64,000 nucleotides of DNA from a virus: positions 1-64,000 of IMG/VR virus record IMGVR_UViG_3300047470_000295, one strand, 5' to 3'. Both the position numbers and the translations under genes were made by a program. Positions 5,047-60,627 of this stretch are shown here, piece after piece. Below the pieces are notes generated by a model. It had not been told where the DNA came from. It did not search any database and saw nothing but the letters and a program-made list of their open reading frames with translations. Positions within the stretch are counted from its first letter, which is position 1. Each line of letters opens with the position of its first letter.

Positions 5047-5073
5047 GTCGGAAGCGTACAGCTCGATCAGACC

Positions 5074-5095: not shown

Positions 5096-5108
5096 AGATC
5101 GGGACGGC

Positions 5109-5678: not shown

Positions 5679-5766
5679 CTGCCACCCGGTCTCCTGACCG
5701 GATCTGGGCCCGCGCCGGACCCTGTACCCGCCCGTGCGCGGGCTCTTCCATGTCTGGAGACATCTC

Positions 5767-6354: not shown

Positions 6355-6448
6355 ACGGGTGGGCGGGCCGGTATAGCCAGCCGGCGCGGGCCCGGTCCGC
6401 CCACCTCTGCACACTGCCCGCGCCGTTACAGAAGGAGAGGCCCGCGCC

Positions 6449-7290: not shown

Positions 7291-7309
7291 CGCTGAGGGG
7301 AGGCCCTCA

Positions 7310-12244: not shown

Positions 12245-12254
12245 GGAGGCCGTC

Positions 12255-14486: not shown

Positions 14487-14489
14487 GCG

Positions 14490-15581
14490 TTGTACCCCGT
14501 CACCGACCGCTTCCTGGCCCGCCTCGCTGAATCCCACCAGGTCGCCACGCGCGTCCAGCTGTTCCTCACGACGGGCCAGGTCGTCGACCTCGACCACACG
14601 GGCGGGTCAGTGACCGTGGACCGCGGGCAGGCGAGCCGACGGACCTGTTCCGTCACCTGCCCCGACCCGGCCCTGATCCCGCGGTCGCCGACGGACCAGC
14701 TCGCCACCTACGGAGCCAGGCTCCGAATCAGCCGCGGCGTCTACTTCGGCGACGGCACCGAAGAACTGGTGCCGCTCGGCCTGTTCCGGCTGGACTCTGT
14801 CGGCGGCGACATCAACGACGGGCCGATCACCCTGACCGGCAAAGACCTGTCGGCGATCATCGCCGACGACAAGTTCACGGCGCCGTTCACGGTGACCGGC
14901 ACGGTCGTCGGCGCCGTTTCCTCGCTGATCCAGCGGAGCATCCCGGACGCGGACATCCTCAGCCTCATCGTCGACGCCCCGATCGGATCCCGGGCGTTCG
15001 ACGTCGAGGCCGATCCGTGGGCTGGGGCGCAGGAGATCGCCGCCTCCGCCGGCGCCGAGGTGTACGCGAACGCCGACGGCGTCTTCGTCATCGCCACCCT
15101 GCCCGAGCTGCTGACGACACCGCCGGTCTGGGCGGTCGAGGCGGCCGAGGGCGGCGTCTACATCTCCGGCAACCGGGCCATGAGCAACGACAACGTCTAC
15201 AACGGCGTCCTCGCCCGCGGGGAGAACACCGCCGACAACATCCCGCCCGTCTCCTACCTGGCCACCGACACCGACGTGAATTCCCCGACGTACTGGGGCG
15301 GTCCGTTCGGTCGGCGGCCGATGTTCTTCAGCTCGTCGACGCTGATGACGCTGGCAGCCTGCACGCAGGCCGCGAACCTGAAACTCGCCCAGTCCAAGGC
15401 CCCGAACGCGTCCGGCGACTTCTCCAGCCTGCCCAACCCGGCGCTGGAGCCGGGCGACGTCCTGCGGGTGATGCACGAGGACGGCACCCGCGAACTCCAC
15501 CAGGTCGCCTCGTTCTCCGTCCCGCTGGATGAGGGCGGCGACTTCCCGATCACGACGATCTCCGCCAAGGAGGACTCGTGA
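14490..15581 (+). CDS. minor tail protein (Tal position; resembles Streptomyces prophage DUF5047-type proteins by recollection)
   Basis: 363 aa with a TTG start 4 nt after the Dit stop. Second gene after the tape measure. Confidence 0.5.
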   Translation: MYPVTDRFLARLAESHQVATRVQLFLTTGQVVDLDHTGGSVTVDRGQASRRTCSVTCPDPALIPRSPTDQLATYGARLRISRGVYFGDGTEELVPLGLFRLDSVGGDINDGPITLTGKDLSAIIADDKFTAPFTVTGTVVGAVSSLIQRSIPDADILSLIVDAPIGSRAFDVEADPWAGAQEIAASAGAEVYANADGVFVIATLPELLTTPPVWAVEAAEGGVYISGNRAMSNDNVYNGVLARGENTADNIPPVSYLATDTDVNSPTYWGGPFGRRPMFFSSSTLMTLAACTQAANLKLAQSKAPNASGDFSSLPNPALEPGDVLRVMHEDGTRELHQVASFSVPLDEGGDFPITTISAKEDS

Positions 15582-16318
15582 CGACGAGCAGCGATCACGC
15601 AATCCGCTCCGCCCTCACCTCGGCCCTGCAAGGCCAGGCGAAACGGGTCGGCGAACAGGCTCCGTCGGTGCGGGGCGCGGACTGGCGCCTCGCCACGGTT
15701 ACCGCGGTCGGCGCCGGCACGGTCACCGCGGACGGCCTCGTCTGGCGCTGCCTGTCTTCCTACGTCAGCCCGACCATCGGGGACGTGGCTGTCGTCAGCC
15801 AGTCCAGCAGCGGCAACCTGATCGCACTGAACCGGCTCGCGACGAGCGCGACCCCCCTGTACACGCCGATCTACCGCTACAAGGCGGCGAACCTCGACCG
15901 CACCACGTCGACCCTCAGCGACGACCCCGACCTGACCGTGCAACTGGACGCAAACGCGGTCTACGAGGTCGAGATGCACCTCCACTACGCGGCCACCGAC
16001 GCGGTCCGCTTCCGCACCGACTGGACTGCACCCTCCGGCGCATCCGGCAACCGCAGCGCCCTCGGCCCCGACCAAGGACAGATCCTGTCCGGCACCTCGT
16101 CGGGCGGCGCCGGACGCTTCGGTGTCCACAACTTCAGCACCGTCTGCATCTACGGCACCCGCGACAGCAACACCAGCCAGTGCGTCGCCATCGAAGAAGC
16201 CACGGTGACCACCACGACGGCCGGCACGTGCGCGCTCCAGTGGGCGCAAGCCACCACCAGCGCAACGTTCACCCGCCTCGCCGCCGGATCGTTCATGCGG
16301 GTCACCCGCATCGGATAG
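15578..16318 (+). CDS. minor tail protein
   Basis: 246 aa, GTGA overlap with the upstream gene, in the tail tip module. Confidence 0.45.
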   Translation: MTTSSDHAIRSALTSALQGQAKRVGEQAPSVRGADWRLATVTAVGAGTVTADGLVWRCLSSYVSPTIGDVAVVSQSSSGNLIALNRLATSATPLYTPIYRYKAANLDRTTSTLSDDPDLTVQLDANAVYEVEMHLHYAATDAVRFRTDWTAPSGASGNRSALGPDQGQILSGTSSGGAGRFGVHNFSTVCIYGTRDSNTSQCVAIEEATVTTTTAGTCALQWAQATTSATFTRLAAGSFMRVTRIG

Positions 16319-16326
16319 GAGACCGC

Positions 16327-16947
16327 ATGTCCACCACCGACGGCTACGGGCAGGGCATCGGTCTCTGGTCGATGACCGACGCCCCGTCGATCCCGGACGC
16401 TATCTCGCTCTTCGCCGCGGGTGTTCTGCCCAGGCTGCGGATGACGTTCGCCTCGGCGTCCGCCCGAGGTGCCACTCTCATCGGATCGTCGGCTCCGGTG
16501 CCCGGCATGATGACGTGGCTGACCGACGTGGGACGCCTCGACGTGTACGACGGCTCGGCCTGGGTCGCCATGTCTGTCGGTACCTCGTCGTGGACGACGA
16601 TCAGCCTCGCCAGCGGGTTCACGCAGAACGGCAACAGCAACGGCAACCTGCAGTACCGCCGGCTGAACATCTCCGGCGAGGACTCTCTGCAGCTGCGCGG
16701 GGCCGTCAATCGGACCTCCTATCCGGCGTCGCCGCCGTCCAGCTACGCCGTGAACGCCACGGCCTTGCCGACCAGCCTCCGCCCGTCAACGCTCCGCACG
16801 GTCGTCGTGCCCTGCTCGGACATCAGCAGCGAGCGCATCACCCTCAAGCTCGACGTGCAGACCGACGGCTACCTGGTGATCTTCGGCATCGGCACTGACG
16901 TGAAGCCGCCGTGGATCGGATTCAACGGCGTCACCGTCTCCCTCTAG
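16327..16947 (+). CDS. minor tail / candidate receptor-binding protein
   Basis: 206 aa from the ATG at 16327 (MSTTDGYGQGIGLW...). The 472-aa track ORF 15529..16947 overlaps the previous gene out of frame upstream of this ATG. Confidence 0.5.
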   Translation: MSTTDGYGQGIGLWSMTDAPSIPDAISLFAAGVLPRLRMTFASASARGATLIGSSAPVPGMMTWLTDVGRLDVYDGSAWVAMSVGTSSWTTISLASGFTQNGNSNGNLQYRRLNISGEDSLQLRGAVNRTSYPASPPSSYAVNATALPTSLRPSTLRTVVVPCSDISSERITLKLDVQTDGYLVIFGIGTDVKPPWIGFNGVTVSL

Positions 16948-17017
16948 CCCCCCCACCGCACTACGCCCGCGCCCACCTCCCGGTAGGGCGCATTTTCATG
17001 CCCTGATTGGGGGTCTC

Positions 17018-18001
17018 ATGGCCAGGACTGGCCCGCAGAAGTACCCGGGAGCGTCGACCGCCTACTGGTACGGCGGCAAGTACCCGGGCTCCGCGATGGA
17101 GTCCAACGTGGTGGTCTGGCACACCACCGAAGGAACGTCTCTTCCCTCGTATAGCGGGGGAGCGGAGGCGCCGAACCTCACCGCGAAGCCCGATTTCGCG
17201 GCGAAGAAGCTCGCTTGGTTCCAGCATTTCGACTTCGACGTATCTGCCCGCGCCCTCGTCAACAAGGCGGGCGGTGTAGAGACGAACACCCTCAACGTGT
17301 GCCAGATCGAGATCGTCGGCACCTGCGACCCGGCCACCCACGCGAAGTGGACGAAGGCCGGCTACTCGCATCTGTACACGCCCGAGCTGCCGGACTGGGC
17401 GATCCGCGACCTCGCCGCCTTCGCCAAGTGGGCCCACGATCAGCACGGCGTCCCACTGGCCAGCAGCGTCACCTTCAAGGCGTACCCGGGCAGCTACGGC
17501 GCCAATGGCGTGAGGATGACGGCCGCCAAGTGGACGGCCTTCACCGGGCACTGCGGTCACCAGCACGTCCCCGAAAACGACCACGGCGACCCGGGCCAGT
17601 TCCCGATGGCCGCCATCCTCACCGCCGCCAAGGGCGGCACCAACCCCGCCCAGGAGGACGACGTGGCCCTGACCACGGAGGACATCAAGAAGATCGCCGC
17701 AGCCTCTGCCGCAGCGACGCTGGGTCTCGACGGGGAGATCACCATCCCGGGCGCGCCAGCGACCAACCCGACCTACACGCTGGCCAGCACCCAGACGGAG
17801 ATCCTCAAGCGGATCGACAAGGTCGCCGCGACCGAGGTCGCACAGACCGCAGCCATCACCGCGCTGGCCAAGCTCGTCGGCTCCGGCGCCGACACCGCGA
17901 CGATCGTCGCCGCCGTCCGCAGCGAGATCCAGACCCAGATCGAGAAGGCCGTCATCAAGGTCGACGTCGACGTCACCGGCACCGCAACGAAGGAGTCCTG
18001 A
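17018..18001 (+). CDS. endolysin, N-acetylmuramoyl-L-alanine amidase (amidase_2/PGRP-like) with coiled C-terminal region
   Basis: Motifs VVWHTTEG and GHCGHQHVPENDHGDPG. First gene after the tail module and followed by membrane proteins. Confidence 0.65.
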   Translation: MARTGPQKYPGASTAYWYGGKYPGSAMESNVVVWHTTEGTSLPSYSGGAEAPNLTAKPDFAAKKLAWFQHFDFDVSARALVNKAGGVETNTLNVCQIEIVGTCDPATHAKWTKAGYSHLYTPELPDWAIRDLAAFAKWAHDQHGVPLASSVTFKAYPGSYGANGVRMTAAKWTAFTGHCGHQHVPENDHGDPGQFPMAAILTAAKGGTNPAQEDDVALTTEDIKKIAAASAAATLGLDGEITIPGAPATNPTYTLASTQTEILKRIDKVAATEVAQTAAITALAKLVGSGADTATIVAAVRSEIQTQIEKAVIKVDVDVTGTATKES

Positions 18002-18003
18002 CC

Positions 18004-18366
18004 ATGCGCATCCTCGGAAGAGAACCGGCCGTCGTCCTGGGCGTCGTGTCCGGCGCCCTGTCCCTCATCGTCACCTTCGGGGCCGGCCTTTCGTCGGAGC
18101 AGGCGGGCGCGATCGTCGCCGTCATCTCCGCCGTGTTCGCGGCGATCACCGCCTGGGTGACCCGGCCGATCGTGCCGTCCGCGTTCACCGGCCTCGTCGC
18201 CGCCGTCATCGCGCTCCTCGCCGCGTTCCACTTCGACGTCGCCCCGGAGACCGTCGGTTCGCTGAACGCCCTCGTCCTCGCACTGCTGGTGTTCATCACC
18301 CGCGGGCAGGTCTCCCCGTCGAAGCCGGACGCACCCGCTACAGCGGGCACGCCGACCGGAGTCTGA
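18004..18366 (+). CDS. holin-like membrane protein
   Basis: 120 aa, ATG 3 nt after the lysin stop, with 3-4 hydrophobic helices (VVLGVVSGALSLIVTFGAGL, AIVAVISAVFAAITAWV, GLVAAVIALLAAF, LVLALLVFI). Confidence 0.55.
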   Translation: MRILGREPAVVLGVVSGALSLIVTFGAGLSSEQAGAIVAVISAVFAAITAWVTRPIVPSAFTGLVAAVIALLAAFHFDVAPETVGSLNALVLALLVFITRGQVSPSKPDAPATAGTPTGV

Positions 18367-18789
18367 ATGCTTGGCCGTGTGGCCCGACTTCTGGGGAGGC
18401 GGGGCGCGTTCCTCGCCTCCTTCGGCGGCCTGTGGGCCCTCTACGGCTTCGGGCAGTTGATGGAGCCGCTGCCCGACACCCACGGCATCCGCACCCTCCT
18501 CCACCTCATGCCGCTCGACGCATGGGCCTGGTGCTGGATCGTCGCGGGCCTCGTCGCCATCACGGCCTCCCCCCTCCCACAGGGCCGTGACTGGTACGGA
18601 TTCCCGGCACTGCTGCTGATCGTTGTGCCGTGGATGTGCTCCTACCTGGTCAGCTGGTGGCCGCTCGGAGACAACCCGAGGGGGTGGGTGACGGCACTGA
18701 TCTGGGCGGTAGCCGCAGTGCCGGTGATGGTGGCCGCTGGCTGGCGAGAGCCACCGCAGCCGAAGAGAGTGAGCGGGGATGAACGCTGA
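18367..18789 (+). CDS. membrane protein (second holin-like / lysis accessory)
   Basis: 140 aa with four hydrophobic segments, adjacent to the lysin-holin pair. Confidence 0.45.
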   Translation: MLGRVARLLGRRGAFLASFGGLWALYGFGQLMEPLPDTHGIRTLLHLMPLDAWAWCWIVAGLVAITASPLPQGRDWYGFPALLLIVVPWMCSYLVSWWPLGDNPRGWVTALIWAVAAVPVMVAAGWREPPQPKRVSGDER

Positions 18790-19141
18790 GACGTGGACCG
18801 CACTGTCGGGAGGCGTGGTCGGAGTCGTATCAGCAGGGGTCACCGCTTGGGGCGCACGCTCCGCGCGGCGCACCAAACGGCAAGAGAGCCGAGACGACTT
18901 CCTCGCCATCACGACCCAGCAGGGCAACGCGATCGAACGACTCGAAGCACGCGTCCAACGGCAGGAGACCGAGGCGGAGAAGCAGCGGCAGCGGATCGGC
19001 GACCAGGACGAAGCCATCGGGTGGCTCCTGTACCGGGTCCGCTCCCTCGTCTCCCACATCAAGAAGGCCGGCATGGAACCCCCGGCGGCAGAGCCGATGT
19101 CGGAGCAGGCGGCCCGCTACATCCGCAACATCGATGCGTGA
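18779..19141 (+). CDS. N-terminally anchored coiled-coil protein (lysis-cassette accessory)
   Basis: One N-terminal TM helix (LSGGVVGVVSAGVTAWG) followed by a charged coiled coil. Confidence 0.4.
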   Translation: MNAETWTALSGGVVGVVSAGVTAWGARSARRTKRQESRDDFLAITTQQGNAIERLEARVQRQETEAEKQRQRIGDQDEAIGWLLYRVRSLVSHIKKAGMEPPAAEPMSEQAARYIRNIDA

Positions 19142-27011: not shown

Positions 27012-27048
27012 AGAAGACCCCCTTCCGCCGTCCGGAAGGGGGTCTTCT
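27012..27048. terminator. strong intrinsic terminator hairpin (16-bp perfect stem)
   Basis: AGAAGACCCCCTTCCG-ccgtc-CGGAAGGGGGTCTTCT followed by GTTGTG. Lies between the ACAD fragment and the convergent integrase stop. Confidence 0.7.
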
Positions 27049-27066: not shown

Positions 27067-28359
27067 TCAATCCTCGTTTGGGAGACGTTTGGGAGATCGT
27101 TTACGCCTGGGGGCCGTGTGCTCGGGAAAGGGGCCCAACTCGCGGCGGTCCACGACGACCTTCAGCGAGTCCTCCCACAACCTCTGGAGGTACTCAGCGA
27201 TCGCCATCTCCATCGCCAACGTCACGTGCGAGTACGTGCCTTCGACGCCCTGGAGCACATGCCCCATCCGCGCCTCGACAGCAACCCTAGGGTGATTCCC
27301 CTCGTCAAGCCAGACCTTCTGCGAGTGCCGAAGCCCGTGCGGCGTGAGGCCCTCGACGCCCAGGACCGGCGGGACACCGACCCGCGCCTTCGCCCCGCGC
27401 ACAACCCCCCGCGGTGCACGGCCCGACACGATGGGCTGCCACGTCTCCGCGTACCAGTCGCCACCCCGCAGCAGGCGCCCACCCTTGGGGGCGGTGAACA
27501 CCCACTCGCCATCCGGCCGCGAGTCGATCAGCTGTTGCAGGAGTTCCGCCAAGAAGGCGGGAAGGATGAGCCCGCGGCCCGAGTCGTACTTGTTGTCGAT
27601 CTCCGTGAACACGCCACCCACGTACTGACTCTGCTGCACCGAGTGGAGGCGCGGGCCCATGCCGGCGTCCTTCAGTTCCAACTGGTCGCGGTGCACGCCG
27701 GCGAGCTCGCCGATGCGCAGGCCGGTGTACGCGGAGGCCAGGACGATGGCGTACTCGTTGAGACCGCGCATCTGGAGCGCGTTGCGCGCGATGTGGAGTA
27801 CCTGCCGTGGGGTGGCGATGGTCTTCTCGTCCTTCGGCTTCGGCTTGAACTTGCCGCGCCGGCCGCTCTTGCGGGTCGCTACGGGATTGTCGCCGCGCAG
27901 CCGTTCCGCGACGGCGTCATCGAGCATGGTGCGGAAGACGCTCATGACGGCGTCGGCATAGTTCTTCGAGATCCGCTGCCGCAGACCCTTCTCCCAGGTG
28001 GTGATCGCAGTGGGGGATAGATCACCAACGGCCGTCTGGCCCCACTCGGGGAGGATCTGATTCTTCAGCCGCAGCCGGTACTCCTTCTCGCTGAGCGGCC
28101 CGACATCGATGGACTCAAGCCATCGCTCGGACCACTGCCCAACCGTCGTGCGCCCGTCGCGCGGGTTGAAGAACTGCTGCCTGCGAACGTCGACTTCGAG
28201 GCCGTGGGCGTAGTCCTTCGCCGAGCGCAGCGTGTAGAACGGCTGACCGTTCTCATCCTTGGAGACCGATCCCCACTCGCCGTTGGGGAGCTTGTACCGA
28301 CCGCGGTACCGCCACTTACGTGCGCGCTTGTCGTAGCCGCGCTTCTCTGCGTGGGCCAT
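27067..28359 (-). CDS. int: tyrosine integrase
   Basis: 430 aa. C-terminal catalytic region LTPHGLRHSQKVWLDEG...ARMGHVLQGVEGTYSHV (H-x-x-R, H, Y), an upstream Arg in TGLRIGELAG, and an N-terminal SAM-like domain. Confidence 0.9.
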   Translation of the reverse strand: MAHAEKRGYDKRARKWRYRGRYKLPNGEWGSVSKDENGQPFYTLRSAKDYAHGLEVDVRRQQFFNPRDGRTTVGQWSERWLESIDVGPLSEKEYRLRLKNQILPEWGQTAVGDLSPTAITTWEKGLRQRISKNYADAVMSVFRTMLDDAVAERLRGDNPVATRKSGRRGKFKPKPKDEKTIATPRQVLHIARNALQMRGLNEYAIVLASAYTGLRIGELAGVHRDQLELKDAGMGPRLHSVQQSQYVGGVFTEIDNKYDSGRGLILPAFLAELLQQLIDSRPDGEWVFTAPKGGRLLRGGDWYAETWQPIVSGRAPRGVVRGAKARVGVPPVLGVEGLTPHGLRHSQKVWLDEGNHPRVAVEARMGHVLQGVEGTYSHVTLAMEMAIAEYLQRLWEDSLKVVVDRRELGPFPEHTAPRRKRSPKRLPNED

Positions 28360-28385
28360 GAGCTGCCTCAGGGGGGAGTGAGCTG

Positions 28386-28604
28386 TCAGCCGGTGACGGC
28401 GTGGAGTGCTCTGCGGACAGTGGACTCATCGAGTCGACGCCAGCCGTCCTGAACGGAGTTGAGGATCGCCTGCAGAGCGCGGGCGCCCTTCTCCTGGATC
28501 AGACCGTCGTCGACGTACACGTTGAATTGTCCGTCGTCACAGTCCTCGACCCAGACCTGAACGGCGTATGGCATTCCCGGAACTGACAGAACCCGCACTG
28601 ACAT
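28386..28604 (-). CDS. small hypothetical protein between repressor and integrase
   Basis: 72 aa from the ATG at 28604 (MSVRVLSVPGMPYAVQVWVEDCDDGQFNVYVDDG...), on the same strand as the repressor and int. Confidence 0.45.
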   Translation of the reverse strand: MSVRVLSVPGMPYAVQVWVEDCDDGQFNVYVDDGLIQEKGARALQAILNSVQDGWRRLDESTVRRALHAVTG

Positions 28605-28708
28605 AGGTCCCCCAAGACCACTGCGGGCGCCCCCCATTGTGGTTGGCCTATGACATCACACGCACCAGCGTTACAGGGAGGGGACTGCAACAATCTGTGT
28701 GAAGGAAG

Positions 28709-29269
28709 TTACGAGCTGTGCGCGGCCGGCGGTTCGTCGCTCACGTCCACGTCGTCAGGCAGACGGTGCAGCTTGCGCTCGGTGCGCCGCCAGGCGAGCA
28801 GTGCTTCCTGAATCTCGGCGGGGGTCGCGTCGGGCCGGCCGTGAACCACGATGGTCATGCGCGCACCGCCCGTGCCGGGGAGTTGGATCACCTGTGAGTC
28901 GATGAGGGGGTCGTCGCTCTCCAGCTCGTCGACCACTCGCAGCGGCAGCTTCCGCCGGAGTACTTCGTCGGTTCGACGGACGGTCGACGCCGAGGAGCTC
29001 TCGGTCACGAGGGTCGGTTCGCCGCCGGTGAGCACGGTCGGGCCGGATCCTGTCGCCCATCCGAGGTGCGGCTCGATCTTCGCGAGGGTCTGCGGCATCC
29101 GGCTACGCGGTTTGCCGCTCTCAAGGTTCTGGACGCTGCCCTCGCTGACGCCTGCAAGTTCCGCCAGTTGGGGTTGCGTGAGGCCGCGCGCTTCGCGGGC
29201 TGTGCGAATTGCGGTAGCGAGCTTCGCCCACTGCAGGTTGGTCCGGTCCTCCGCCATGCGGCTCATCAT
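28709..29269 (-). CDS. CI-like immunity repressor (XRE HTH with a C-terminal domain of unknown type)
   Basis: HTH REARGLTQPQLAELAGVSEGSVQNLESGK. Divergent from a Cro-like gene, and no obvious S24 peptidase motif. Confidence 0.65.
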   Translation of the reverse strand: MMSRMAEDRTNLQWAKLATAIRTAREARGLTQPQLAELAGVSEGSVQNLESGKPRSRMPQTLAKIEPHLGWATGSGPTVLTGGEPTLVTESSSASTVRRTDEVLRRKLPLRVVDELESDDPLIDSQVIQLPGTGGARMTIVVHGRPDATPAEIQEALLAWRRTERKLHRLPDDVDVSDEPPAAHSS

Positions 29270-29547
29270 GCCGCACGGATAGGCAACACGCACCTAGCGG
29301 ATCCCCTAATTGACCAGGATTGATCGGTCTTAGGGGAGCTTTTTTGTTGCTTCGTTAGCGCCTCGTTGCGCTTGCGCCCCGTGTGCACGCCTACGCGCGC
29401 CGTGTAGCTATGGCCAGCGATCTCGGCCCTCGCGCCAGACGTACACCCAAGGAACACTGATTAACACCCAACGAACCCGGTGCAATCCCTTGCCGTTGTC
29501 GCGTCGTTAGGGCTACGTTGTGTCTCGTGAGACCGAACGGAGCCGCA

Positions 29548-48920: not shown

Positions 48921-49522
48921 CCGACCAGCCCGAACCCGAAGACACCTGCCGAACCGTCGAGATCGGCGGGGAGACGATCCGCGTCCGCGGCGCCGCCGAG
49001 CTCACCGACGAAGGCCGTGAAGCGCTCGCCGAGGTTGTCGGTGCAGCCCGCCGAAAGTTGGCCGCCGAACCGCCGCGCGTCCGCCAGCAGTTGCAAGCCG
49101 TCGCCTTTAACGCTGTCCTTCCCGCGCTGGAGAAGCACGGCGAATGGCTGCGGCTCACCGCCCGCCGCACCATCGCCAACGCCGTCCTGGAAGCCATCGA
49201 AGGCCAGCTGGACATCGGAGAGGCGGAGGCCTGGTGCAAGACCTGCCGCCGCGTCTGGGGCGGACCCCGGCACCGGTGCGAATCGGATGCCGAGCAGGCC
49301 CTCGCCCGGGTCGTCGCCGCACTCCCGCCGTACAGCCTGCCGACCCACGGCGACCGCAGCGAAGGCGTGCAGATGGGCTGGGACCTCGCCCGTCAGACCG
49401 TCCTCGACGCCATCGAACAGTCAGCAGCGCCCGAACAGGCCGACGGCGGGCCGACCGTCGCCGAATGCCGCGACGCAGACCGCGTCCACGGGAACGACGA
49501 ACACGCCGAGGAGCAGTCGTGA
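48917..49522 (+). CDS. hypothetical protein
   Basis: 201 aa, ATGA overlap with the upstream gene. Confidence 0.4.
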   Translation: MTDQPEPEDTCRTVEIGGETIRVRGAAELTDEGREALAEVVGAARRKLAAEPPRVRQQLQAVAFNAVLPALEKHGEWLRLTARRTIANAVLEAIEGQLDIGEAEAWCKTCRRVWGGPRHRCESDAEQALARVVAALPPYSLPTHGDRSEGVQMGWDLARQTVLDAIEQSAAPEQADGGPTVAECRDADRVHGNDEHAEEQS

Positions 49523-49962
49523 CCGCAGCCCGATTCGCCGTCGCCTACGCAGCCCTGACCGCCGCCCACGAAGTCGGCGATCACTGGGTGCAGACAGACC
49601 GGCTGGCCATGGCCAAGGGGAAGGCGGCCGGCGCCCTGGCCTGCGCCGAACACGTCGCCACGTACACCGCCACGCAGGCCGTCGCCCTCGCCGTCGTCCA
49701 GCGCGCCACCGGGATGCGCCTGTCCTGGCGCCGCGCCGCCCTCGGCCTCGCCGTGTCCGCGGCCACGCACTACGTCGCCGACCGGCAAGGCGGCCACTGG
49801 CGCGACGAGCAGCCCCGCGGCGTGGTCCGCCTCGCCGCAGCCACCGGGCACGCCGGCTGGTTGCAGCGGGACCCGAACGCGGGCTACCTGATGGATCAGG
49901 CCTGGCACAAGGGATGGATCTTCGTGGCCGCGCTCGTGGCAGCTGGAGGGGAGCAGGCGTGA
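49519..49962 (+). CDS. DUF3307-like membrane protein
   Basis: AHEVGDHWVQTDRLAMAKGK motif (H..GD...Q), 147 aa. Confidence 0.5.
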   Translation: MTAARFAVAYAALTAAHEVGDHWVQTDRLAMAKGKAAGALACAEHVATYTATQAVALAVVQRATGMRLSWRRAALGLAVSAATHYVADRQGGHWRDEQPRGVVRLAAATGHAGWLQRDPNAGYLMDQAWHKGWIFVAALVAAGGEQA

Positions 49963-50111
49963 CCAGCGCCGACGACATCCTCGACCGGATAGGACCGTCA
50001 TCGAATCCGGGGGATCATGAGACGTTCACTCCGGAGATCGACCGCAGCCTCGCGGCCCGCCTGGACGACGAAGAGGTAGTCATGTCGGGCCCCGTCCTAG
50101 ACGGGTGGTGA
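49959..50111 (+). CDS. small hypothetical protein (last gene of the plus-strand early run)
   Basis: 50 aa, GTGA overlap with the upstream gene. Confidence 0.3.
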   Translation: MTSADDILDRIGPSSNPGDHETFTPEIDRSLAARLDDEEVVMSGPVLDGW

Positions 50112-50370
50112 CCGGCCCGCCTGGCAGTCGAAGTACGGGCCAGCCCGACGGAGACGGTGAACGCCCGCCTACTCCTCTGGGGGCGTCGGCTTCTCGTTGA
50201 GCGGCAGGCCGAGAGCCGTGTTGATCGCCTGCCGCCGCTTCGAGACCTCGCCAGGCTTGCGCGGCGGCACGGTCCGCTCCGCTCGAATCGCTGCGAACGA
50301 GGGCGGTTCCAATTCATCCTCAGGGGCCATGCCGGAACAACGGCTCCCACCAGCTGGCAGTCACGCAGAT

Positions 50371-50397
50371 GCCCCGTCCGGGTGGCCCGGACGGGGC
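50371..50397. terminator. strong hairpin terminator (12-bp perfect stem)
   Basis: GCCCCGTCCGGG-tgg-CCCGGACGGGGC, 13 nt downstream of the 223-aa minus-strand gene. Confidence 0.65.
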
Positions 50398-50409
50398 GTT
50401 GCTTCGGAC

Positions 50410-51081
50410 CTAGGCCTTCTCGGTGGTGCGGTGCTGCGAGATGAAATAGTCGACCGTCGCCGGGTCTCTCCGCATTGCGGCCAGCAGCTGCTTCTTTCGG
50501 AACTGCTCCCGGCCAGTCTCCAGGATCTTTTCGTAGCCGTCGCGGGCTTGAACGATCCGCTCGACGGCCAGGAATTCGATGACGTCTTCCAGGCATGGGC
50601 GGAACCGTTTGCCGCCGACCGGGAAGTGAAGCGCCGCGAGGGAGCGGCCCGTGTCCGTCTTCGGGTCGTTCAGTGACTCGAAGAACCCTGACGACGCCTC
50701 GACTTGCAGGTGGGCGTCCGGGTAGCCGTCAGCCTTGTCCCGCTCGTAGTCGTAGTGGAACAGGCCGTGCTTGGCGTCCTTCGACCCGAACACGCCGACG
50801 AACGACTTGTGGACCATGAGATGTTCGCGCTCGATGTCGAGGCGTAGCTGGAAGCTGACGTCCATCCATAGCTCAACCTTCGGCGCCCGCGGCTTCAACT
50901 GAAAGCGTTCCGCTGTCAGTAACCGTTTATCGAGCAGGTGTCCAAGCATGAAAAGGCGGTCGTCACCCACCTGGAGTGCGACCGCCTTTATTTGCACGTG
51001 ACTGGCGATGGTGCCGTTCAGGAGAGCCTGGATCTCCTTGGTGAATCTGATCGTCTGATTGAGGAGCTTGTCAGAGATCAA
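50410..51081 (-). CDS. 223-aa protein of unknown function (lower-GC cassette, downstream gene)
   Basis: Uninterrupted ORF in a visibly AT-richer segment with a TTG start. No motif recognised apart from the conspicuous LFHYDYERDKADGYPDAHLQVE. Confidence 0.6.
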   Translation of the reverse strand: MISDKLLNQTIRFTKEIQALLNGTIASHVQIKAVALQVGDDRLFMLGHLLDKRLLTAERFQLKPRAPKVELWMDVSFQLRLDIEREHLMVHKSFVGVFGSKDAKHGLFHYDYERDKADGYPDAHLQVEASSGFFESLNDPKTDTGRSLAALHFPVGGKRFRPCLEDVIEFLAVERIVQARDGYEKILETGREQFRKKQLLAAMRRDPATVDYFISQHRTTEKA

Positions 51082-51280
51082 GTGCGCCGCCGATGGACAC
51101 CCACAGTGATTGCGCCTGGGCCGAGGTGAACTCCCGCCGGCGGGCCATGTCGCGTAGCTGCGCGTAGGTCAGGCCGAGCCGGTCGAGGGCCGCGTAAGCA
51201 GCCTCCCGGAACTCTTCCTGCGTGACTTCGGTGATGACGTCGTCGTCGTGGTCAGCGTGTCGCTGTTCCTGAATGGTCAT
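51071..51280 (-). CDS. 69-aa protein of unknown function (lower-GC cassette, upstream gene)
   Basis: MTIQEQRHADHDDDVITEVTQEEFREAAYAALDRLGLTYAQLRDMARRREFTSAQAQSLWVSIGGALDL. ATG after GGGGGGTAGGGG, and the 3' end overlaps the 223-aa gene by 11 nt. Confidence 0.5.
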   Translation of the reverse strand: MTIQEQRHADHDDDVITEVTQEEFREAAYAALDRLGLTYAQLRDMARRREFTSAQAQSLWVSIGGALDL

Positions 51281-51344
51281 CCGAATCGCCCCTACCCCCC
51301 AGTAGCTTCTCGATGACAGTAGTGTCCCCCAAGGGTCTGACACT

Positions 51345-51358
51345 GTGACCCGGGTCAC
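51345..51358. promoter_or_regulatory. perfect 14-bp palindrome GTGACCCGGGTCAC upstream of the cassette
   Basis: Lies 65 nt upstream of the 69-aa gene start, flanked by GACAC...GTGTC. Confidence 0.4.
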
Positions 51359-51517
51359 CACCCGGTGTCCAGCCAAACGACACCACTGTCGAATTCTTCC
51401 CACTTGCGCGTGATCTGTACGCCCGCAGTTGCCGTCATGTACGGATCCTGACTAGCCAGCGTTCGAGCATGACGACGCCCCCGCCCCGGTGAACCAGGAC
51501 GAGGGCGCAGCGCACCG

Positions 51518-51841
51518 TCAGAACTGACCCGTGCAGGCGAGGCAGACCCGCGACGACTCCCACGCTGCTCGCTGCTGCTCCGCGTAGGCCGTCGCCTTGT
51601 AGACGAGTGCACCCCAGCCCAGACCGCCGGCCGCGATCAGCAGGCCGAGGAGGACGGCGCCGTTCGCGGCGGCCACGATGCCGACCACCAGCGCACCCAG
51701 CGCCCCGAGCGCGCCACCCTTCGCCGCGGCGGGCGGCGCGTACTTCGCCTTCAAATCCGAGTCCGACGGCAACGACCGCCAATAGTGCGGAAGATCAGCC
51801 ACGTTCGGCGACCCGCACTTCGGCGACGGACACACGATCAT
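51518..51841 (-). CDS. zinc-ribbon membrane protein
   Basis: 107 aa. N-terminal CPSPKCGSPN, a Gly/Ala-rich double TM segment, and C-terminal CLACTGQF. Confidence 0.45.
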   Translation of the reverse strand: MIVCPSPKCGSPNVADLPHYWRSLPSDSDLKAKYAPPAAAKGGALGALGALVVGIVAAANGAVLLGLLIAAGGLGWGALVYKATAYAEQQRAAWESSRVCLACTGQF

Positions 51842-52043
51842 GCTCAACCCCCAGTCGACACAGCCCTGTTCGCCGACAGTCCGGCCGCAGCTTGGGCGCC
51901 ACAAGGCCTACCGACCGGTGTGTGAGCGGGGCCACAACCCAAACGCCGCGAGCGCCCCACCTGCATCAGGCGAGACGCTCGCGTAGCGAAACGACTACAG
52001 AACAGCCAGGTCAGACGACTGGCCTTAAGGCGCGCCCCTTCGC

Positions 52044-52538
52044 CTAGTCGTTCTGGTGTCGCAGCGCCCGGCTGATCGTTGACTGCTCGACGTCGAGCAG
52101 CCGCGCCACGGCGGACTGGCTGCCGACGATGTCGACCATCTTCTGCAGCTCGCGCGCCCGCGTTCCGGCGTAAGCGAGGACTTCGGCCTGCGCCTTGTCC
52201 ATCGCCGCCGTGCAGCGCTGGACGTCGACCATCGCGTTGTAGAACCGTCGGTGCTGGTCGGCCGGCACCTTCGCCCACACGGCCTCTTCGATCCGGATCC
52301 GCTCCATGCGCTTGCGCACCAGGCGCGTCATTTCCGGGTTGTCGTCGATGCGGGCGAGGGGGCCATCCACCTCGCCCGAGGCGATGAGTGCGGGGTCCCA
52401 CTCGAAGCTGTCGGGCTTCTCCAGGATCTCGAAGTCTTCGAGCAGCAAGGCGCCGCCACTGCCCGGCGTGCTGGGCTCGACGACGATGTAGGTGGTGCCG
52501 CTCTCGCTGCGGTATCGCTCGCCGATCTCGCTGAACAT
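52044..52538 (-). CDS. hypothetical protein with C-terminal HTH
   Basis: 164 aa from the ATG at 52538, with C-terminal GSQSAVARLLDVEQSTISRALRHQ. Confidence 0.45.
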   Translation of the reverse strand: MFSEIGERYRSESGTTYIVVEPSTPGSGGALLLEDFEILEKPDSFEWDPALIASGEVDGPLARIDDNPEMTRLVRKRMERIRIEEAVWAKVPADQHRRFYNAMVDVQRCTAAMDKAQAEVLAYAGTRARELQKMVDIVGSQSAVARLLDVEQSTISRALRHQND

Positions 52539-53229: not shown

Positions 53230-53655
53230 TCAGTGCGGCAGCGCGTCGTCGAGGTACTCCTGCACCGGTCCGAAAAGCCCGTAGGGCACGTAGTCGGCGA
53301 TCTCCGCGTGCGTGATCCAGGCGACCGCGTCGAGCTCCTCGTCGTCTGCGACTCGGGCCTCGCCGCCGACCAGGCGGACCGCGACGTAGTGCATCGGCAC
53401 CTTCGACTTCGGGTGCACCCGGTCGCCGAGCACCTTCACCGACTCGACCTTCAGGCCGGTCTCCTCGTCGACCTCGCGGACCGCGGCCTGCTCCGGTGAC
53501 TCGCCGGCCTCGATCGCGCCGCCCGGGAACACCCAGGAGATCTCACCCTCGGCGGCCCTGCGGCGCGCCATGAGCACCTTGCCCTGGTCGACGATGATCG
53601 CGACCGACACCGGCGGCTTCTCGATCTTCTGCTCGGCAGTCGTCTCGGTCGTCAT
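53230..53655 (-). CDS. Nudix hydrolase
   Basis: 141 aa. Nudix box GGAIEAGESPEQAAVREVDEETGL (GX5EX7REUXEEXGU). Confidence 0.8.
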   Translation of the reverse strand: MTTETTAEQKIEKPPVSVAIIVDQGKVLMARRRAAEGEISWVFPGGAIEAGESPEQAAVREVDEETGLKVESVKVLGDRVHPKSKVPMHYVAVRLVGGEARVADDEELDAVAWITHAEIADYVPYGLFGPVQEYLDDALPH

Positions 53656-54350
53656 ACGGTGGCCTCCAAGGCTTCCAGGATCGGCGGATAGATGCGGTCG
53701 CGGGGGATGTAGCGGGACAGCTCCTCTATCGGAGCCCAAGCCACGTCGGCGTTCTCGGAAGCGTCCCCGTTCACCGCTTCGCCTCGCACGTAGTCGCAGA
53801 TGAAGTAGTCGCAGTAAGCGCGCGTAACCGGATGAAGCCGTTCACCCAAGTGCTCGCGGACCATGCAGTGCACGCCCGTCTCGTCCAGGGTTTCCCTGAC
53901 AGCGACCTTCGGAGCGGACCCGCCCGGCTTCACGATCCCCGCCGGGAACTGCCACGTCATGTCGTCGCCGTCCTGCCTGCACACGAGGAGGACATCACCG
54001 TCGCGGCGCACGACCGCAATGGCCACCCGCAGCGCCTGCGCCTGCATCTGCTGAGCGTGGGCGCGCACGTAGTGGATGAACAGCCTGCGCACCGCATCAC
54101 CTGCCTTTCCGTTGTAGGCCGCGTTGAGAATCCGGCGCGTTTCCAACTTCGGGACCATGTCGGGCGCCTGATGCCAGGCGGCGACCGTCCGGACCGACAC
54201 TCCGAGGCGCGCAGCGAACTCTTCCTGCGTGTCCTCGAAGGCGTCCTGGAGCCAGCAAGCGTGCCGGCCGGTCCACTGGGTGACGTCCACTATCGGCTCC
54301 CTGGCCGCTTCCGTGGGGGTGGTTGCGGCGAACCTGCAGAGTGCCTGCAC
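53652..54350 (-). CDS. HTH-Nudix fusion protein
   Basis: 232 aa. N-terminal HTH (TQEEFAARLGVSVRTVAAWHQ) and C-terminal Nudix box PAGIVKPGGSAPKVAVRETLDETGV. ATGA overlap with the downstream Nudix gene. Confidence 0.7.
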   Translation of the reverse strand: MQALCRFAATTPTEAAREPIVDVTQWTGRHACWLQDAFEDTQEEFAARLGVSVRTVAAWHQAPDMVPKLETRRILNAAYNGKAGDAVRRLFIHYVRAHAQQMQAQALRVAIAVVRRDGDVLLVCRQDGDDMTWQFPAGIVKPGGSAPKVAVRETLDETGVHCMVREHLGERLHPVTRAYCDYFICDYVRGEAVNGDASENADVAWAPIEELSRYIPRDRIYPPILEALEATV

Positions 54351-57259: not shown

Positions 57260-58519
57260 GTGACTGCCATGTCCGTCGAGAAGAAGGTCAACGGCACTCC
57301 GATGGCCTCGCCCGAGCCGCGGTTCGACCCGCGCGCGCTGGCCGAGGCGGAGGCGATCCGTACCCGAGCCGCCGCCGAAGCCGAAGCCGCCCGAATCAAA
57401 GCCGCCGGTGAAGCCGAGGCCGAGAAGATCAAGGCCGCTGAGGAGGCTCGCAAGCAGAAGATCCTCAACGACAAGGCCGAGTCGCGGGCCCGCGAGGAAG
57501 AGGCGGCGCGGGCGGCCCGCATCGCGGAGTCGAACAGCAAGCGCCAAGAGGCCGAACGCGCCCAGGAGAAGCAGGACCGGGAGGCGCTACAGGCGCAGGA
57601 GGACGAGGCGAAGCTCGCCGAAGAGATCGCCGCCGCCGACGAGAAGTGGCGGGCCTACGCGATCCGCTTCGCGATCGTCTGCGGCATCGTCTCCCTGCCC
57701 GTCCAGATGAGCTTCTTCTGGAACCCGAAGGCGCCCTGGATGGCCGCCGCCCCGATCATGCTCGAAGGCGCCGCGTGGGTCGTCCACCGCGGGGCCCGTG
57801 CGGCGGCTGTCAGTAAGCGGCCCGTCTGGCACTACCGGACGATCGTCTGGCTCCTCGCCCTGATCGCCGCCGGCGTGAACCTCTACCACGGCCTCCACTC
57901 GTTCGACCCGGGCACGGCCATCGCGACCGCGTTCGCATCGATCGCCGGCCCAGGCGTCTGGGACCTCCACGAGCACGGCCGGCTCCGCAAGCGCGACGGG
58001 GCGCTCACCCGCAAGGAGCGCCGGGCGGCCGAGCGCGCCGCCAAGGCCGAGGCCCAACGGCTGGCCGCCGAGCAGCAGAAGAAGGCGGCCGACGAGGGGG
58101 CCGCACGCAAGGCGGCCGAGGCCGCGGCGGCGAAGCTCGCCGCGGACCGCGAGGTGATGTTCCCGAAGGTGTGGCAGCACGCCGTGAAGCTCGCCGCCGA
58201 CCTTGGCCAGACGACTGTCACCAACGCGATCTGGGCCCAGGCCAAGTTCGACGTCGAAGGCGCCAAGCCGGGCGAATCCGCCGACGTCATCCGCATGCGC
58301 AACGCCGCCGAAGCGAGGGTCGCCGCAGCCCGCGAGAAGCGCCCCGTAAACGGATCATCACAGCAGGTCGCATCGCAAGTGCTCGGTCCCAAGCAGAAGC
58401 GCGTCTACAACCCGCCCGCACGCCCCGGAAAGCGCCGCAAGGGCGACGTGAAGTTCACGTCCGCTGCACGCCGCCAGGCGTCCATTGCCGCCAAGCAGAC
58501 CGCCGGAAAGAAGGACTGA
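57260..58519 (+). CDS. DUF2637-like membrane protein with AEAEA/KAAE-rich coiled-coil arms
   Basis: 419 aa. Central 3-4 TM block (FAIVCGIVSLPVQMSFFW, MAAAPIMLEGAAWVV, IVWLLALIAAGVNLY). By recollection this family sits directly upstream of the FtsK-like gene in Streptomyces plasmids and AICEs. Confidence 0.5.
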   Translation: MTAMSVEKKVNGTPMASPEPRFDPRALAEAEAIRTRAAAEAEAARIKAAGEAEAEKIKAAEEARKQKILNDKAESRAREEEAARAARIAESNSKRQEAERAQEKQDREALQAQEDEAKLAEEIAAADEKWRAYAIRFAIVCGIVSLPVQMSFFWNPKAPWMAAAPIMLEGAAWVVHRGARAAAVSKRPVWHYRTIVWLLALIAAGVNLYHGLHSFDPGTAIATAFASIAGPGVWDLHEHGRLRKRDGALTRKERRAAERAAKAEAQRLAAEQQKKAADEGAARKAAEAAAAKLAADREVMFPKVWQHAVKLAADLGQTTVTNAIWAQAKFDVEGAKPGESADVIRMRNAAEARVAAAREKRPVNGSSQQVASQVLGPKQKRVYNPPARPGKRRKGDVKFTSAARRQASIAAKQTAGKKD

Positions 58520-58521
58520 GG

Positions 58522-60627
58522 ATGGCCACCCCGCTGACCGACGAGCGTGCCCCGCTGACCCTCGTCAAGGACACCCCCGAGACGGTCGACCCGGCCGCGG
58601 CGTGGGTCGTGGAGAAGCGGCCCCGCCCCGCCTGGATGATGTCCGGGCAGCAGCTGCGGCAGTGGGCTGTCTACGCCCGCGACAACGCGCTCGACTTCGC
58701 CACCCACCACGCCACCCACTCGCCCTACTACCTCGGCTGGTCGGTGCGCGGCTACCGCCGGCTCTGCCTCCGCTGGTGGCAGGCCCGGCACGACGACTAC
58801 CGGCAGCAGATCGCCACCGCCAAGCTCATGCTCCGCCAGGCCAAGGAGATGCCGCGAGGCACCGCGCGTGCCGCCGAAGAGTCGAAGGCCCGCGCCCTGC
58901 TCGAAGTTCGGCGCACCGAGTTCAAGGCGCACAAGCGGCGCCACTGGATCCGCACCGGCATCAGCGGACTGCTCGTCGTCGGTGGCGCGTCCGCCGTCGC
59001 AGCCCTCGGCAGCTGGTGGATGCAGCTCCTCCTCGTCCTCGCCGTCGTGTTCGCCGGCGCCTACCACGGCCGACCCGAAGAGCGGGCTGTCGCCGCTGCG
59101 CAGGCGCCGACCCGGACGTCGCACCTGGGGGAGGAGACCATGCGGCGCGTCCTCGTCGAGGCCGGCGTCGTCCCCGAGAAGCGGGCCGCCGAGATCCGCG
59201 GCGTCGGCCTGCCCCACACGGAGGGCCCTGGCATCGCCTTCGCCGTCGACCTGCCGTCCGGCATGCCGGCCACGATCGCGCTCGCCAAGAAGAAGGAGAT
59301 CGCCTCAGCTCTCGCCGTCCACAGCGACTGGCTCGACCTCGGCGTGGGCCGCGGCGCAGGCAGCAGCGAATCCCGGCTGGAGATCTGGGTCTCCCGGGAA
59401 GACCCCTTCGCCAGCGCCCACGTCTCCCCGCTCATCGGACACAAGGGCAAGCTCGACCTGTGGAACGACGGCGCCCCGCTCGCCTTCGGGAAGCGCGGGA
59501 ACACCGTCCTTGTCCGCGTGCGCGACACGATGATGCTCGTCGGCGGCGCCACCCGCCGCGGAAAAGGCGTCTTCCTCGCCAACCTCAACCTCGGCGCATG
59601 CAAGGACGTGCGGGTCAACCTGCGGCTCTTCGACGGCAAGGCCTCCGGTGAGCACAACGCCTTCTCTGGGCTGCTCTCCACGTTCGTCAAGAAGAACCCC
59701 GAGCGGCTCACCCTGTTCCTGCGGGCCGTCCTTGAAGACCTCGACCGGCGCAGCGACTTCCTCGACGAGCGCGGCAAGGCCAAGCTGACCGAAGACCTGA
59801 TCGAGGAGATCGGCGGCATCGAGCTCATCGACATCGACGAGTTGGCCACCTACACGGCCAAGGGCACCAGCCCCTACGTCGACGAGATCGTCGAGAGCCT
59901 CGCCCAGATCGGTGCCGTCGGTGCCGGTCTCGGGGTCCTCCTTGTCGCAGCAACGCAGGTCCCGGAAGTCGACGTCGTCCGCGGCCGGCTCCGCCAGAAC
60001 CTGATCTCCCGCGCCGCCATGAACACCGAGTCGCCCAACGCCTCCAACACGATCCTCGGCGACGGCATGGCCGGTCAGGGCTACGACGCGTCGGTGATCC
60101 CGCTCGATCAGCCCGGTCGGTTCTGGTTCAAGTCGCCCGACCTCGGCACGGTGTCGCTTCGCTCGTTCTTCATCGACGACGACGACAAGGCGCCGATCAT
60201 CGCCGATGCCTACGAACTCCGGAAGGCCGCGGGCCGGCTTCCCGGACAGTGGCACGACCCGATCGAGGAGAAGCTCGCCGCCTGGACCGGCGTCTCCTCG
60301 GCCGCCGGCGGGGAGCGCGGCAACGGCCGGATCGTCCGCGTCACCCTGCTGGAGCGGCTGGAGATCCTTGCCAAGCAGACAGGCCGCGGCAACGTCACGA
60401 ACGCCGAGGTGTTCGCCGCACTCGCCACCACCGATCCGGCCAAGTACGGACAGCAGGACGGCGAAACGGGCCACGGCTGGTCGATCCGCGTCGGCAAGAT
60501 CCTGAAGGACGAACTCGACCGCCTCGGCGTCGACATCGAGGCAAAGAAGGTCGCCGGCCCGGACGGGCAACGGACGTCGGGCTACCTGCTCGCAGACGTC
60601 ACTGCCGCCCGAAATGTCCGCAACTGA
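58522..60627 (+). CDS. traB: FtsK/SpoIIIE-family DNA translocase, TraB/TraSA-like
   Basis: 701 aa. N-terminal TM pair (ISGLLVVGGASAVAALGSWWMQLLLVLAVVFAGAY), P-loop-like VGGATRRGKGVF (the final residue is G, not S/T) and Walker B IELIDIDE. DUF2637-like gene upstream and Spd-like genes downstream. Confidence 0.65.
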   Translation: MATPLTDERAPLTLVKDTPETVDPAAAWVVEKRPRPAWMMSGQQLRQWAVYARDNALDFATHHATHSPYYLGWSVRGYRRLCLRWWQARHDDYRQQIATAKLMLRQAKEMPRGTARAAEESKARALLEVRRTEFKAHKRRHWIRTGISGLLVVGGASAVAALGSWWMQLLLVLAVVFAGAYHGRPEERAVAAAQAPTRTSHLGEETMRRVLVEAGVVPEKRAAEIRGVGLPHTEGPGIAFAVDLPSGMPATIALAKKKEIASALAVHSDWLDLGVGRGAGSSESRLEIWVSREDPFASAHVSPLIGHKGKLDLWNDGAPLAFGKRGNTVLVRVRDTMMLVGGATRRGKGVFLANLNLGACKDVRVNLRLFDGKASGEHNAFSGLLSTFVKKNPERLTLFLRAVLEDLDRRSDFLDERGKAKLTEDLIEEIGGIELIDIDELATYTAKGTSPYVDEIVESLAQIGAVGAGLGVLLVAATQVPEVDVVRGRLRQNLISRAAMNTESPNASNTILGDGMAGQGYDASVIPLDQPGRFWFKSPDLGTVSLRSFFIDDDDKAPIIADAYELRKAAGRLPGQWHDPIEEKLAAWTGVSSAAGGERGNGRIVRVTLLERLEILAKQTGRGNVTNAEVFAALATTDPAKYGQQDGETGHGWSIRVGKILKDELDRLGVDIEAKKVAGPDGQRTSGYLLADVTAARNVRN

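Follow-up and report, generated by a model that had tools for sequence, protein, structure and literature searches.

A conserved two-gene cassette carried by Actinomycetota prophages, plasmids and viral contigs: a candidate toxin-antitoxin-type module

The first 64,000 nucleotides (nt) of the IMG/VR virus record IMGVR_UViG_3300047470_000295 (a 64-kb stretch, hereafter the window) hold a two-gene cassette at 50371–51360. Both of its open reading frames (ORFs) lie on the minus strand: a gene for a small acidic protein and a longer gene that overlaps its end, with a putative control region upstream and a terminator-like hairpin downstream (Table 1). A previous reading made from the letters of the window alone, which we call the sequence-only reading, had described an 11-nt overlap of two minus-strand ORFs, a small-upstream/large-downstream layout, a segment AT-richer than its surroundings and a terminator with a 12-base-pair (bp) stem, and had proposed a toxin-antitoxin (TA) or abortive-infection (Abi) type of system. 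Those descriptive points hold up: the two genes are adjacent, co-directional and overlapping, a layout kept across most of the 60 loci compared; the overlap is conserved in most relatives; and both the base composition and the hairpin are as described.

Table 1. Positions of the cassette features, and of neighbouring genes discussed in the text, in the window
Feature	Position	Strand	Description
Small gene	51071-51280	-	ATG start, 69 amino acids (aa); ORF list; candidate neutralising partner (antitoxin-like)
Large gene	50410-51081	-	TTG start, 223 aa; ORF list; putative enzyme, candidate effector (toxin-like)
Overlap TTGATCTCTGA	51071-51081	-	11 nt, large-gene start to small-gene stop; candidate translational coupling site
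Control region (promoter, operator, 5' leader; putative)	51281-51467	-	conserved blocks in alignments; nucleotide homology ends ~51467
-35-like hexamer TGGACA (inferred)	51366-51371	-	CTGGACA kept in most clade-1 loci
-10-like CACAGT (putative)	51342-51347	-	18-nt spacer from the -35-like hexamer; spacer contains the palindrome
14-bp perfect palindrome GTGACCCGGGTCAC	51345-51358		in putative promoter spacer; candidate operator
Inverted repeat AGTGTC-N12-GACACT	51321-51344		second candidate operator or 5'-leader element
G-rich ribosome-binding region GGGGGGTAGGGG	51289-51300	-	upstream of small-gene ATG
Terminator-like hairpin	50371-50397	-	12-bp perfect GC-rich stem, 3-nt loop; 13 nt past large-gene stop
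Tyrosine integrase	27067-28359		phage-like part
HTH repressor	28709-29293		phage-like part
128-aa protein	51518-51904	-	small membrane/zinc-ribbon-like; just upstream of cassette
Tandem NUDIX genes	53230-53739 and 53652-54350	-	listed ORFs overlap by ~90 nt
FtsK/SpoIIIE-like gene	58171-60627		right of the cassette, beyond the NUDIX genes

Both ORFs are genuine genes kept by purifying selection. A frame-specific GC pattern supports coding on the minus strand in each frame, and the pairwise ratio of nonsynonymous to synonymous substitution rates (dN/dS) against relatives is 0.06–0.18 for both genes (0.06–0.16 for the small gene); a value of 1.11 for the large gene of one locus, L011, was discarded as an artefact of ungapped alignment. 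The TTG of the large gene is the first and only in-frame start available after the upstream stop. The cassette has a GC content of 61.8%, compared with a mean of 68.4% (standard deviation 2.5) for windows of the same size (z = -2.7), and only 7 of 1263 such windows reach a value as low. The same skew is seen throughout the family, the cassette exceeding its own flanks in AT content in all 60 related loci tested, with a mean difference of 7 points.

The way in which the genes overlap is itself conserved. Among the 60 loci analysed, 30 from Streptomyces share an identical 11-nt overlap and TTG start; in most other genera the overlap measures 8–23 nt. The start codon of the large gene is TTG in ~43 of 59 loci and GTG in 8 of 59. 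Since this rare, weak start lies inside the end of the upstream gene, we infer that synthesis of the large protein is coupled to that of the small one, the conserved short overlap being the likely means of translational coupling. The stretch ATCGGCGGC at 51085–51093, which encodes a conserved C-terminal Ile-Gly-Gly in the small protein, lies 4–12 nt upstream of the large-gene TTG, and it may serve as a Shine-Dalgarno-like element of the large gene too, in which case it would be under dual constraint.

A scan of species-representative genomes confirmed 152 loci (numbered here with an L), 80 of which were analysed further. They come from Streptomyces, Actinoplanes, Micromonospora, Frankia, Sphaerimonospora, Blastococcus, Herbidospora and many metagenome-assembled genomes (MAGs) of Acidimicrobiia. 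A homologue of the small gene lies immediately upstream of the large gene in ~77 of the 80 loci, so that the conserved co-occurrence across genomes, which the sequence-only reading had made a test of its proposal, is found across Actinomycetota. Identity of the small protein falls in step with that of the large one, from 93%/86% in the closest locus quoted here (L001) to ~28%/33% in a distant one (L055). The two genes are a conserved, co-evolving pair, nearly always together and in the same order. The exceptions are two loci with a frameshifted large gene (L017, L071), one remnant (L070) and one solo, 5'-truncated copy that has neither promoter nor small gene (L029); the large gene is intact in ~76 of 80. 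In several Acidimicrobiia MAGs the cassette is present twice in one genome, as divergent copies: CAXXMX010000010.1 (L049, L065), JAPONU01 (L056, L057) and JAPPDX01 (L054, L058).

The cassette is a discrete, horizontally mobile unit that moves with its own upstream control region. Nucleotide homology to the ten closest relatives (75%–86% protein identity) is limited to ~50404–51467, a span that takes in both genes and ~190 nt upstream, and the flanks are unrelated; no family of neighbouring genes is common to more than 9 of 81 loci. This bears out the earlier description of a self-contained, horizontally acquired unit, given that homology stops at the edges, that a control region and a hairpin come with the genes, and that the AT-richness is general. 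Not every location is on an evident mobile element. The cassette lies directly downstream of core cytochrome c biogenesis genes (DsbD_TM, ResB, CcsA-like; at about 4000–7650) in four Streptomyces genomes (L019, L020, L021, L027), and can therefore settle in conserved chromosomal regions too. In some Acidimicrobiia lineages it occupies a syntenic chromosomal locus.

Carriers of several kinds were found. In the Mycobacterium abscessus MabE1 prophages prophi102-2 and prophiGD54-1, the homologous pair is genes 78 (78 aa) and 77 (232 aa), which lie between the integrase and the holin/lysin genes, are transcribed against them, and are annotated as hypothetical proteins only. A sibling MabE1 prophage, prophiGD04-1, has in the same slot genes annotated as an RNA demethylase, an oxidoreductase and a hypothetical protein (L081, MW584173, 1636–2580, compared with L098, MW584209, 3918–5878). 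The MabE1 slot between the lysis genes and the integrase is thus a variable cargo locus, and the placement that the sequence-only reading had likened to that of lysogen-expressed morons is matched by an integrase-proximal cargo slot in these prophages. Deviant GC, a control region and hairpin of its own, breakpoints at its edges and a slot with other contents in a sibling prophage all mark the cassette as a moron. Family members are also carried by a Rhodococcus megaplasmid, near integrases and transposases, by two Curtobacterium plasmids and by 14 IMG/VR viral contigs. The cargo described for M. abscessus prophages consists of polymorphic toxin-immunity cassettes and recognised TA systems (PMC8092301); that paper lists the carriers and does not single out the genes of this pair. 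We found no expression data for the M. abscessus pair.

The large protein belongs to a sizeable family. Its relatives number 277 among 90%-identity clusters, the named ones listed being hypothetical proteins of ~220 aa, and a profile search of 1.84 billion representatives returned 975 family members at 50% identity (730 at E <= 1e-10). The protein is soluble and mildly basic (isoelectric point, pI, 8.6; family median 8.2–8.5), with no membrane segment. Its AlphaFold model (predicted local distance difference test, pLDDT, 86; predicted template-modelling score, pTM, 0.84) has an N-terminal helix, a six-strand antiparallel sheet arranged as a meander, a long loop and three C-terminal helices. 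Among 248 members, 14 positions are at least 95% conserved (R114, Y120, H124, H152, P154, G156, R159, R161, E165, D166, E174, R191, Q198 and A201; numbered on the full 223-aa product, with the TTG as residue 1). The segment LFHYDYERDKADGYPDAHLQVE, which had already been picked out by eye as the most striking part of the protein, is indeed present and is the most conserved stretch of the family.

The conserved residues suggest an enzyme. H124 is found in 246 of 248 members, position 125 is hydrophobic, and position 126 is Q in 213 members and H in 34. Histidines at positions 109 and 126 are largely mutually exclusive: the pair is H/Q in 200 members, R/H in 22, R/Q in 12 and H/H in 5 (Fisher p = 3e-22, not corrected for phylogeny). 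Judging from strand register in the model, residues 109 and 126 would be opposite one another in the predicted β5–β6 hairpin, and the exchange looks like that of a ligand or catalytic histidine moved to the neighbouring strand. The face formed by His109/126, together with the loop-helix H152-P-x-G-G-x-R-x-R-P-x-x-E-D, would then be the active site. The core as a whole (R114, Y120, H124-x-Q/H126, H152, R159, R161, E165, D166), with its mix of His, Tyr, three Arg and Glu/Asp, would fit an enzyme of phosphoryl transfer, metal-dependent or acid-base, with a nucleic acid or nucleotide as its substrate.

Attempts to attach this core to a known family gave nothing. Neither the large protein nor 42 diverse members that were also scanned have a match in Pfam, PHROGs, PADLOC or NCBIfam, and in PADLOC-DB v2.0.0 neither protein of the pair matches any defence profile at E <= 1. 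Sequence and profile searches against the PDB returned noise only for the large protein (juvenile hormone binding protein, E 0.13; TTHA1606, E 2; a capsid protein, E 0.25), and Foldseek of its model against the PDB and BFVD found nothing at E < 0.001, the best template-modelling (TM) score being 0.28. The sequence-only reading had recognised no toxin, nuclease or defence motif in this protein and had pointed to profile searches and Foldseek on AlphaFold models of each protein as the way to find one; these have now been run, and its negative stands, with no homology to any family found. Several motifs that can be picked out in the large protein were tried and rejected. In a ligase/capping KxDG, residues K116, D118 and G119 vary across the family; for a JAMM HxHx7Sx2D and for a PD-(D/E)xK nuclease motif, either the residues are not conserved family-wide or the spacing or fold is unfit; R146 of a HEPN Rx4-6H varies and sits in a loop; the third His of a HIT HxHxH is not conserved; and in a 2-oxoglutarate oxygenase HxD...H triad, H109 is not invariant and there is no double-stranded β-helix.

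The small protein is acidic (pI 4.6; family median 4.4). Its AlphaFold model (pLDDT 72) consists of a disordered acidic N-terminus followed by helices at residues 21–35, 39–48 and 53–66, and Trp60 is invariant in the family. A helix-turn-helix-like geometry of the three predicted helices is possible. There is no match in Pfam, PHROGs, PADLOC or NCBIfam for this protein or for 26 diverse members also scanned; the best match among PDB sequences, the α-CTD of RNA polymerase, is noise at E 0.06, and Foldseek of the model against the PDB gives no match at E < 0.001.

Upstream of the genes, the promoter has been placed by conservation because a scan for consensus sigma-70 promoters called none in the upstream region of the cassette, and the -35-like and -10-like elements in Table 1 are accordingly putative. 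The 14-bp palindrome that the sequence-only reading had noted is present and falls in the spacer between them. As a sequence it is not unusual, since the window holds eight perfect 14-bp palindromes and shuffled sequences hold 9.0 +/- 2.5, so that taken alone it is not beyond chance. It gains weight from its position and from a symmetry partly kept in relatives, where it takes the form GTGRCC-NN-GGYCAC, with four to six of the six arm matches in 9 of 11 loci; in one of them (L007) it is perfect again after changes on both arms. Better conserved than the palindrome is the adjacent inverted repeat just downstream, whose cores TGTCAG and ACACT show no change among 20 loci drawn from divergent Streptomyces clades. 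The 12 nt between its arms differ from locus to locus without staying complementary, a pattern more in keeping with a DNA site for protein binding than with an RNA stem. An RNA hairpin at this repeat was considered and set aside, as the inner part does not keep its pairing, and an Rfam scan of 49500–52500 gave no match. A GGGGG run 6–15 nt ahead of the small-gene ATG is invariant in 20 aligned loci. Autoregulation through the two dyad sites is plausible from this arrangement.

On the other side of the genes, the arms of the hairpin (50371–50382 and 50386–50397) form a structure of about -31 kcal/mol with no T tract. Perfect hairpins with a 12-bp stem are far above chance in the window (six matches, 0.13 expected). 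Most close relatives also have a strong hairpin after the large-gene stop, of unrelated sequence, and the best 40-nt fold reaches -20 kcal/mol or lower in 42% of loci compared with 20% of control segments (p = 9e-4).

What kind of system is this? Our preference, which is tentative and stops short of calling it probable, is a TA-type two-protein module that travels as a moron of Actinomycetota prophages, plasmids and conjugative elements. The points that speak for it are the architecture, the strict conservation of the pair, its mobility, the opposite charges of the two proteins, the enzyme-like core and the moron positions; the occasional decay of the large gene (two frameshifts, one remnant, one promoterless solo copy) was counted on the same side. 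A TA or Abi function is what the architecture suggests. As in type II TA systems of the RelBE/ParDE type, a small acidic gene lies upstream of, and overlaps, a larger basic one; a putative promoter region of its own has dyad repeats and the unit a terminator; and the cassette is spread patchily over prophages, plasmids and chromosomes, with a GC content lower than its surroundings. It differs from them in that its proteins fall, by sequence and by fold, in no recognised toxin or antitoxin family or superfamily, that most classical toxins are smaller than the 223-aa partner, that the small protein has no recognisable RHH, HTH, AbrB or Phd-type domain, and that no exchange of partners was seen between loci.

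If the cassette works in this manner, the 223-aa protein would be an enzyme with its active site on a β-hairpin (H109/D111 opposite H124/Q126) and on the loop-helix (H152, R159, R161, E165, D166), and its substrate would most likely bear a phosphate, as a nucleic acid or a nucleotide does. The acidic three-helix protein of 69 aa would bind and silence it, coupled translation from the weak start would keep the small protein in excess, and the small protein or the complex would repress the promoter through the dyad sites at 51321–51358. Depletion of the small protein (by phage infection, loss of the element or stress) would free the enzyme and arrest growth, the outcome being abortive infection or stabilisation of the carrier element. 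A more specific version is doubtful at present: that this is a previously undescribed TA/Abi family restricted to Actinomycetota, made up of a His-cluster enzyme whose fold is without relatives among solved structures and predicted viral proteins (H124, H109 or H126, and H152, with Arg/Glu/Asp partners) and a new small, acidic three-helix antitoxin. If the TA reading holds, the protein-family pair would be new and the operon logic familiar.

A number of observations weigh against this assignment. Neither protein is akin by sequence or fold to a known toxin, antitoxin or defence protein, and the small one, besides being acidic overall, has no recognisable DNA-binding domain. We found neither a publication nor an experiment on the family, and its motif strings are absent from the literature searched. 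The promoter is proposed from conservation, and the 14-bp palindrome is statistically ordinary taken alone. No partner swapping was seen among the loci compared, the same small family always going with the large one, and the intact state of most large genes means that there is no sign of frequent toxin inactivation. The neighbourhood is not that of a defence system either. PADLOC statistics for the genes around homologues, put forward by the sequence-only reading as a check on a defence role, turned out unfavourable to it: the 144 immediate neighbours in 72 loci are mostly transport and metabolic genes, and the matches to defence models among them are one type IV restriction enzyme, one type IIG restriction-modification enzyme, one LmuA and some helicase-type matches, so there is no sign of defence-island enrichment (on raw counts, with no background rate).

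Much of this would suit a harmless accessory moron, in which the large protein is an enzyme for modification or hydrolysis of a nucleotide, nucleic acid or small molecule and the small protein serves it as an obligate subunit, a chaperone or a specificity factor; the gain for the host or element would be superinfection exclusion, counter-defence or a metabolic tweak, with no self-toxicity to neutralise. We regard this as somewhat unlikely, and as the most serious of the alternatives. Strict one-to-one co-evolution without exchange of partners, a large gene that is nearly always intact, neighbours that are mainly metabolic or transport genes, the position beside core cytochrome c biogenesis genes in several Streptomyces genomes and the syntenic locus in some Acidimicrobiia lineages are all as it would have them. 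The overlap with a weak start, the acidic/basic polarity, the dyad sites and the presence on prophages and plasmids fit neutralisation better, although each of them is also compatible with a two-subunit enzyme.

It is improbable that the genes are instead a regulatory pair controlling transfer, excision, replication or lysogeny of the carrier, as an anti-repressor with its partner or as a DNA-binding complex. In the window and in five further loci (L003, L004, L011, L026, L038) the cassette does lie near genes of conjugative-plasmid type (NUDIX, FtsK/SpoIIIE-like, small membrane protein), the conserved R191, Q198 and R204 of the C-terminal helices could contact DNA, and the small protein weakly resembles the helix-hairpin-helix of the RNA polymerase α-CTD. 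That resemblance is not significant, however, in most loci the genes directly beside the cassette are not those of a mobile element, the carriers are of unrelated types, and a His/Glu/Asp cluster with a His swap looks catalytic and not DNA-binding.

Very improbable indeed is an HUH-type single-stranded DNA endonuclease (Rep, relaxase or transposase-like) that mobilises the cassette or its carrier with the help of a small accessory protein: H124-U-Q/H126 on a β-strand after H-x-D-x-E resembles motif III of relaxases and the HUQ form of motif 2 in Rep proteins, but the likeness is at motif level only, there is no conserved Tyr at the HUH position (the sole conserved one, Y120, is four residues upstream of the motif), the model predicts a helix and then a six-strand meander, Foldseek against the PDB brought up no Rep, relaxase or TnpA (TM at most 0.26), and, the terminator apart, the cassette is not bordered by terminal repeats or origin-like hairpins. 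A His-hydrophobic-His/Gln motif with further His, Asp and Glu on the neighbouring strand suggests a metal or acid-base centre.

Two other comparisons can be made. Among the morons and integrase-proximal cargo of actinobacteriophage lysogens (PMC8092301), the MabE1 pair sits by the integrase and the cassette of the window sits between convergent modules; unlike the recognised cargo, the pair is annotated as hypothetical only. Geb, a single Streptomyces anti-phage protein of 150 aa without Pfam domains (bioRxiv 10.1101/2025.01.08.631966), is likewise an orphan globular Actinomycetota protein whose conserved His and Asp suggest an enzyme and which was found by context and not by homology. It is encoded by one gene, whereas the cassette has two, and the cassette motifs are absent from the supplements of that defence-discovery preprint, so there is no evidence that the two are related.

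Actinomycetota are poorly explored for TA and anti-phage systems. The family described here is sizeable, with ~1000 representatives at 50% identity, is entirely unannotated and travels on prophages, plasmids and elements of conjugative type. Should the large protein prove to be a toxin or defence effector, the repertoire would gain a new enzymatic fold and chemistry, and a recurrent cargo pair of Streptomyces and M. abscessus prophages would be explained. The conserved residues are precise mutational targets, which makes the hypothesis directly testable.

The surroundings of the cassette in the window are of two kinds. To its left lie phage-like genes, including those for a tape-measure protein, an endolysin, a PD-(D/E)xK exonuclease, methylases, a LuxR-type regulator and a putative DnaB-type helicase (the last from reading the translation only), and a rightward early/replication operon ends near 50111. 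To its right, the genes run leftward. The 128-aa protein next to the cassette has a Cys-rich, zinc-ribbon-like N-terminus, a hydrophobic C-terminal half and no Pfam match, and its homologues adjoin the cassette in L004 (on the same side) and L011 (on the other side and opposite strand). Beyond it are an HTH protein and the two NUDIX genes, the second of which has a weak HTH_3 match; the NUDIX region is common to L004/L086, L087 and L088. Homologues of the FtsK/SpoIIIE-like protein are found on 45 Streptomyces/Kitasatospora plasmids, and 50,697 phage records contain none.

The window therefore looks composite, with a phage-like part (1–50111) followed by a part of conjugative-plasmid type (51500–64000), and this makes the cassette a piece of cargo lodged where two convergent modules of a composite element meet. 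The sequence-only reading had placed it at an early-region boundary, as in a prophage. That is right in so far as the cassette adjoins a phage-like early operon; the other side is a conjugative-plasmid-type module and not a simple prophage end. Collinearity with the window extends to both sides of the cassette in the IMG/VR contigs L085 and L087, and the arrangement may thus be a recurrent hybrid of phage and conjugative element; the five loci named above for their conjugative-type neighbours share some of the right-hand genes.

A few minor features of the window can be added. There is no tRNA gene in the 64 kb. An ORF of 53 aa (50169–50330, minus strand) lies 3' of the cassette hairpin, in the gap before the convergent operon; it has a weak coding signal and does not share the conservation of the cassette, as homology stops at the large-gene stop codon. 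The other perfect hairpins with a 12-bp stem (five matches at four distinct sites: 21586, 26715, 27015–27016 and 46277) are probably terminators at module boundaries, for instance around the integrase. The integrase and repressor (27067–29293) are central, between 1–19000 and 29500–50111, and the resulting gene order (structural, lysis, integrase, repressor, early) is that of a packaged phage genome and not of a prophage split at its attachment site.

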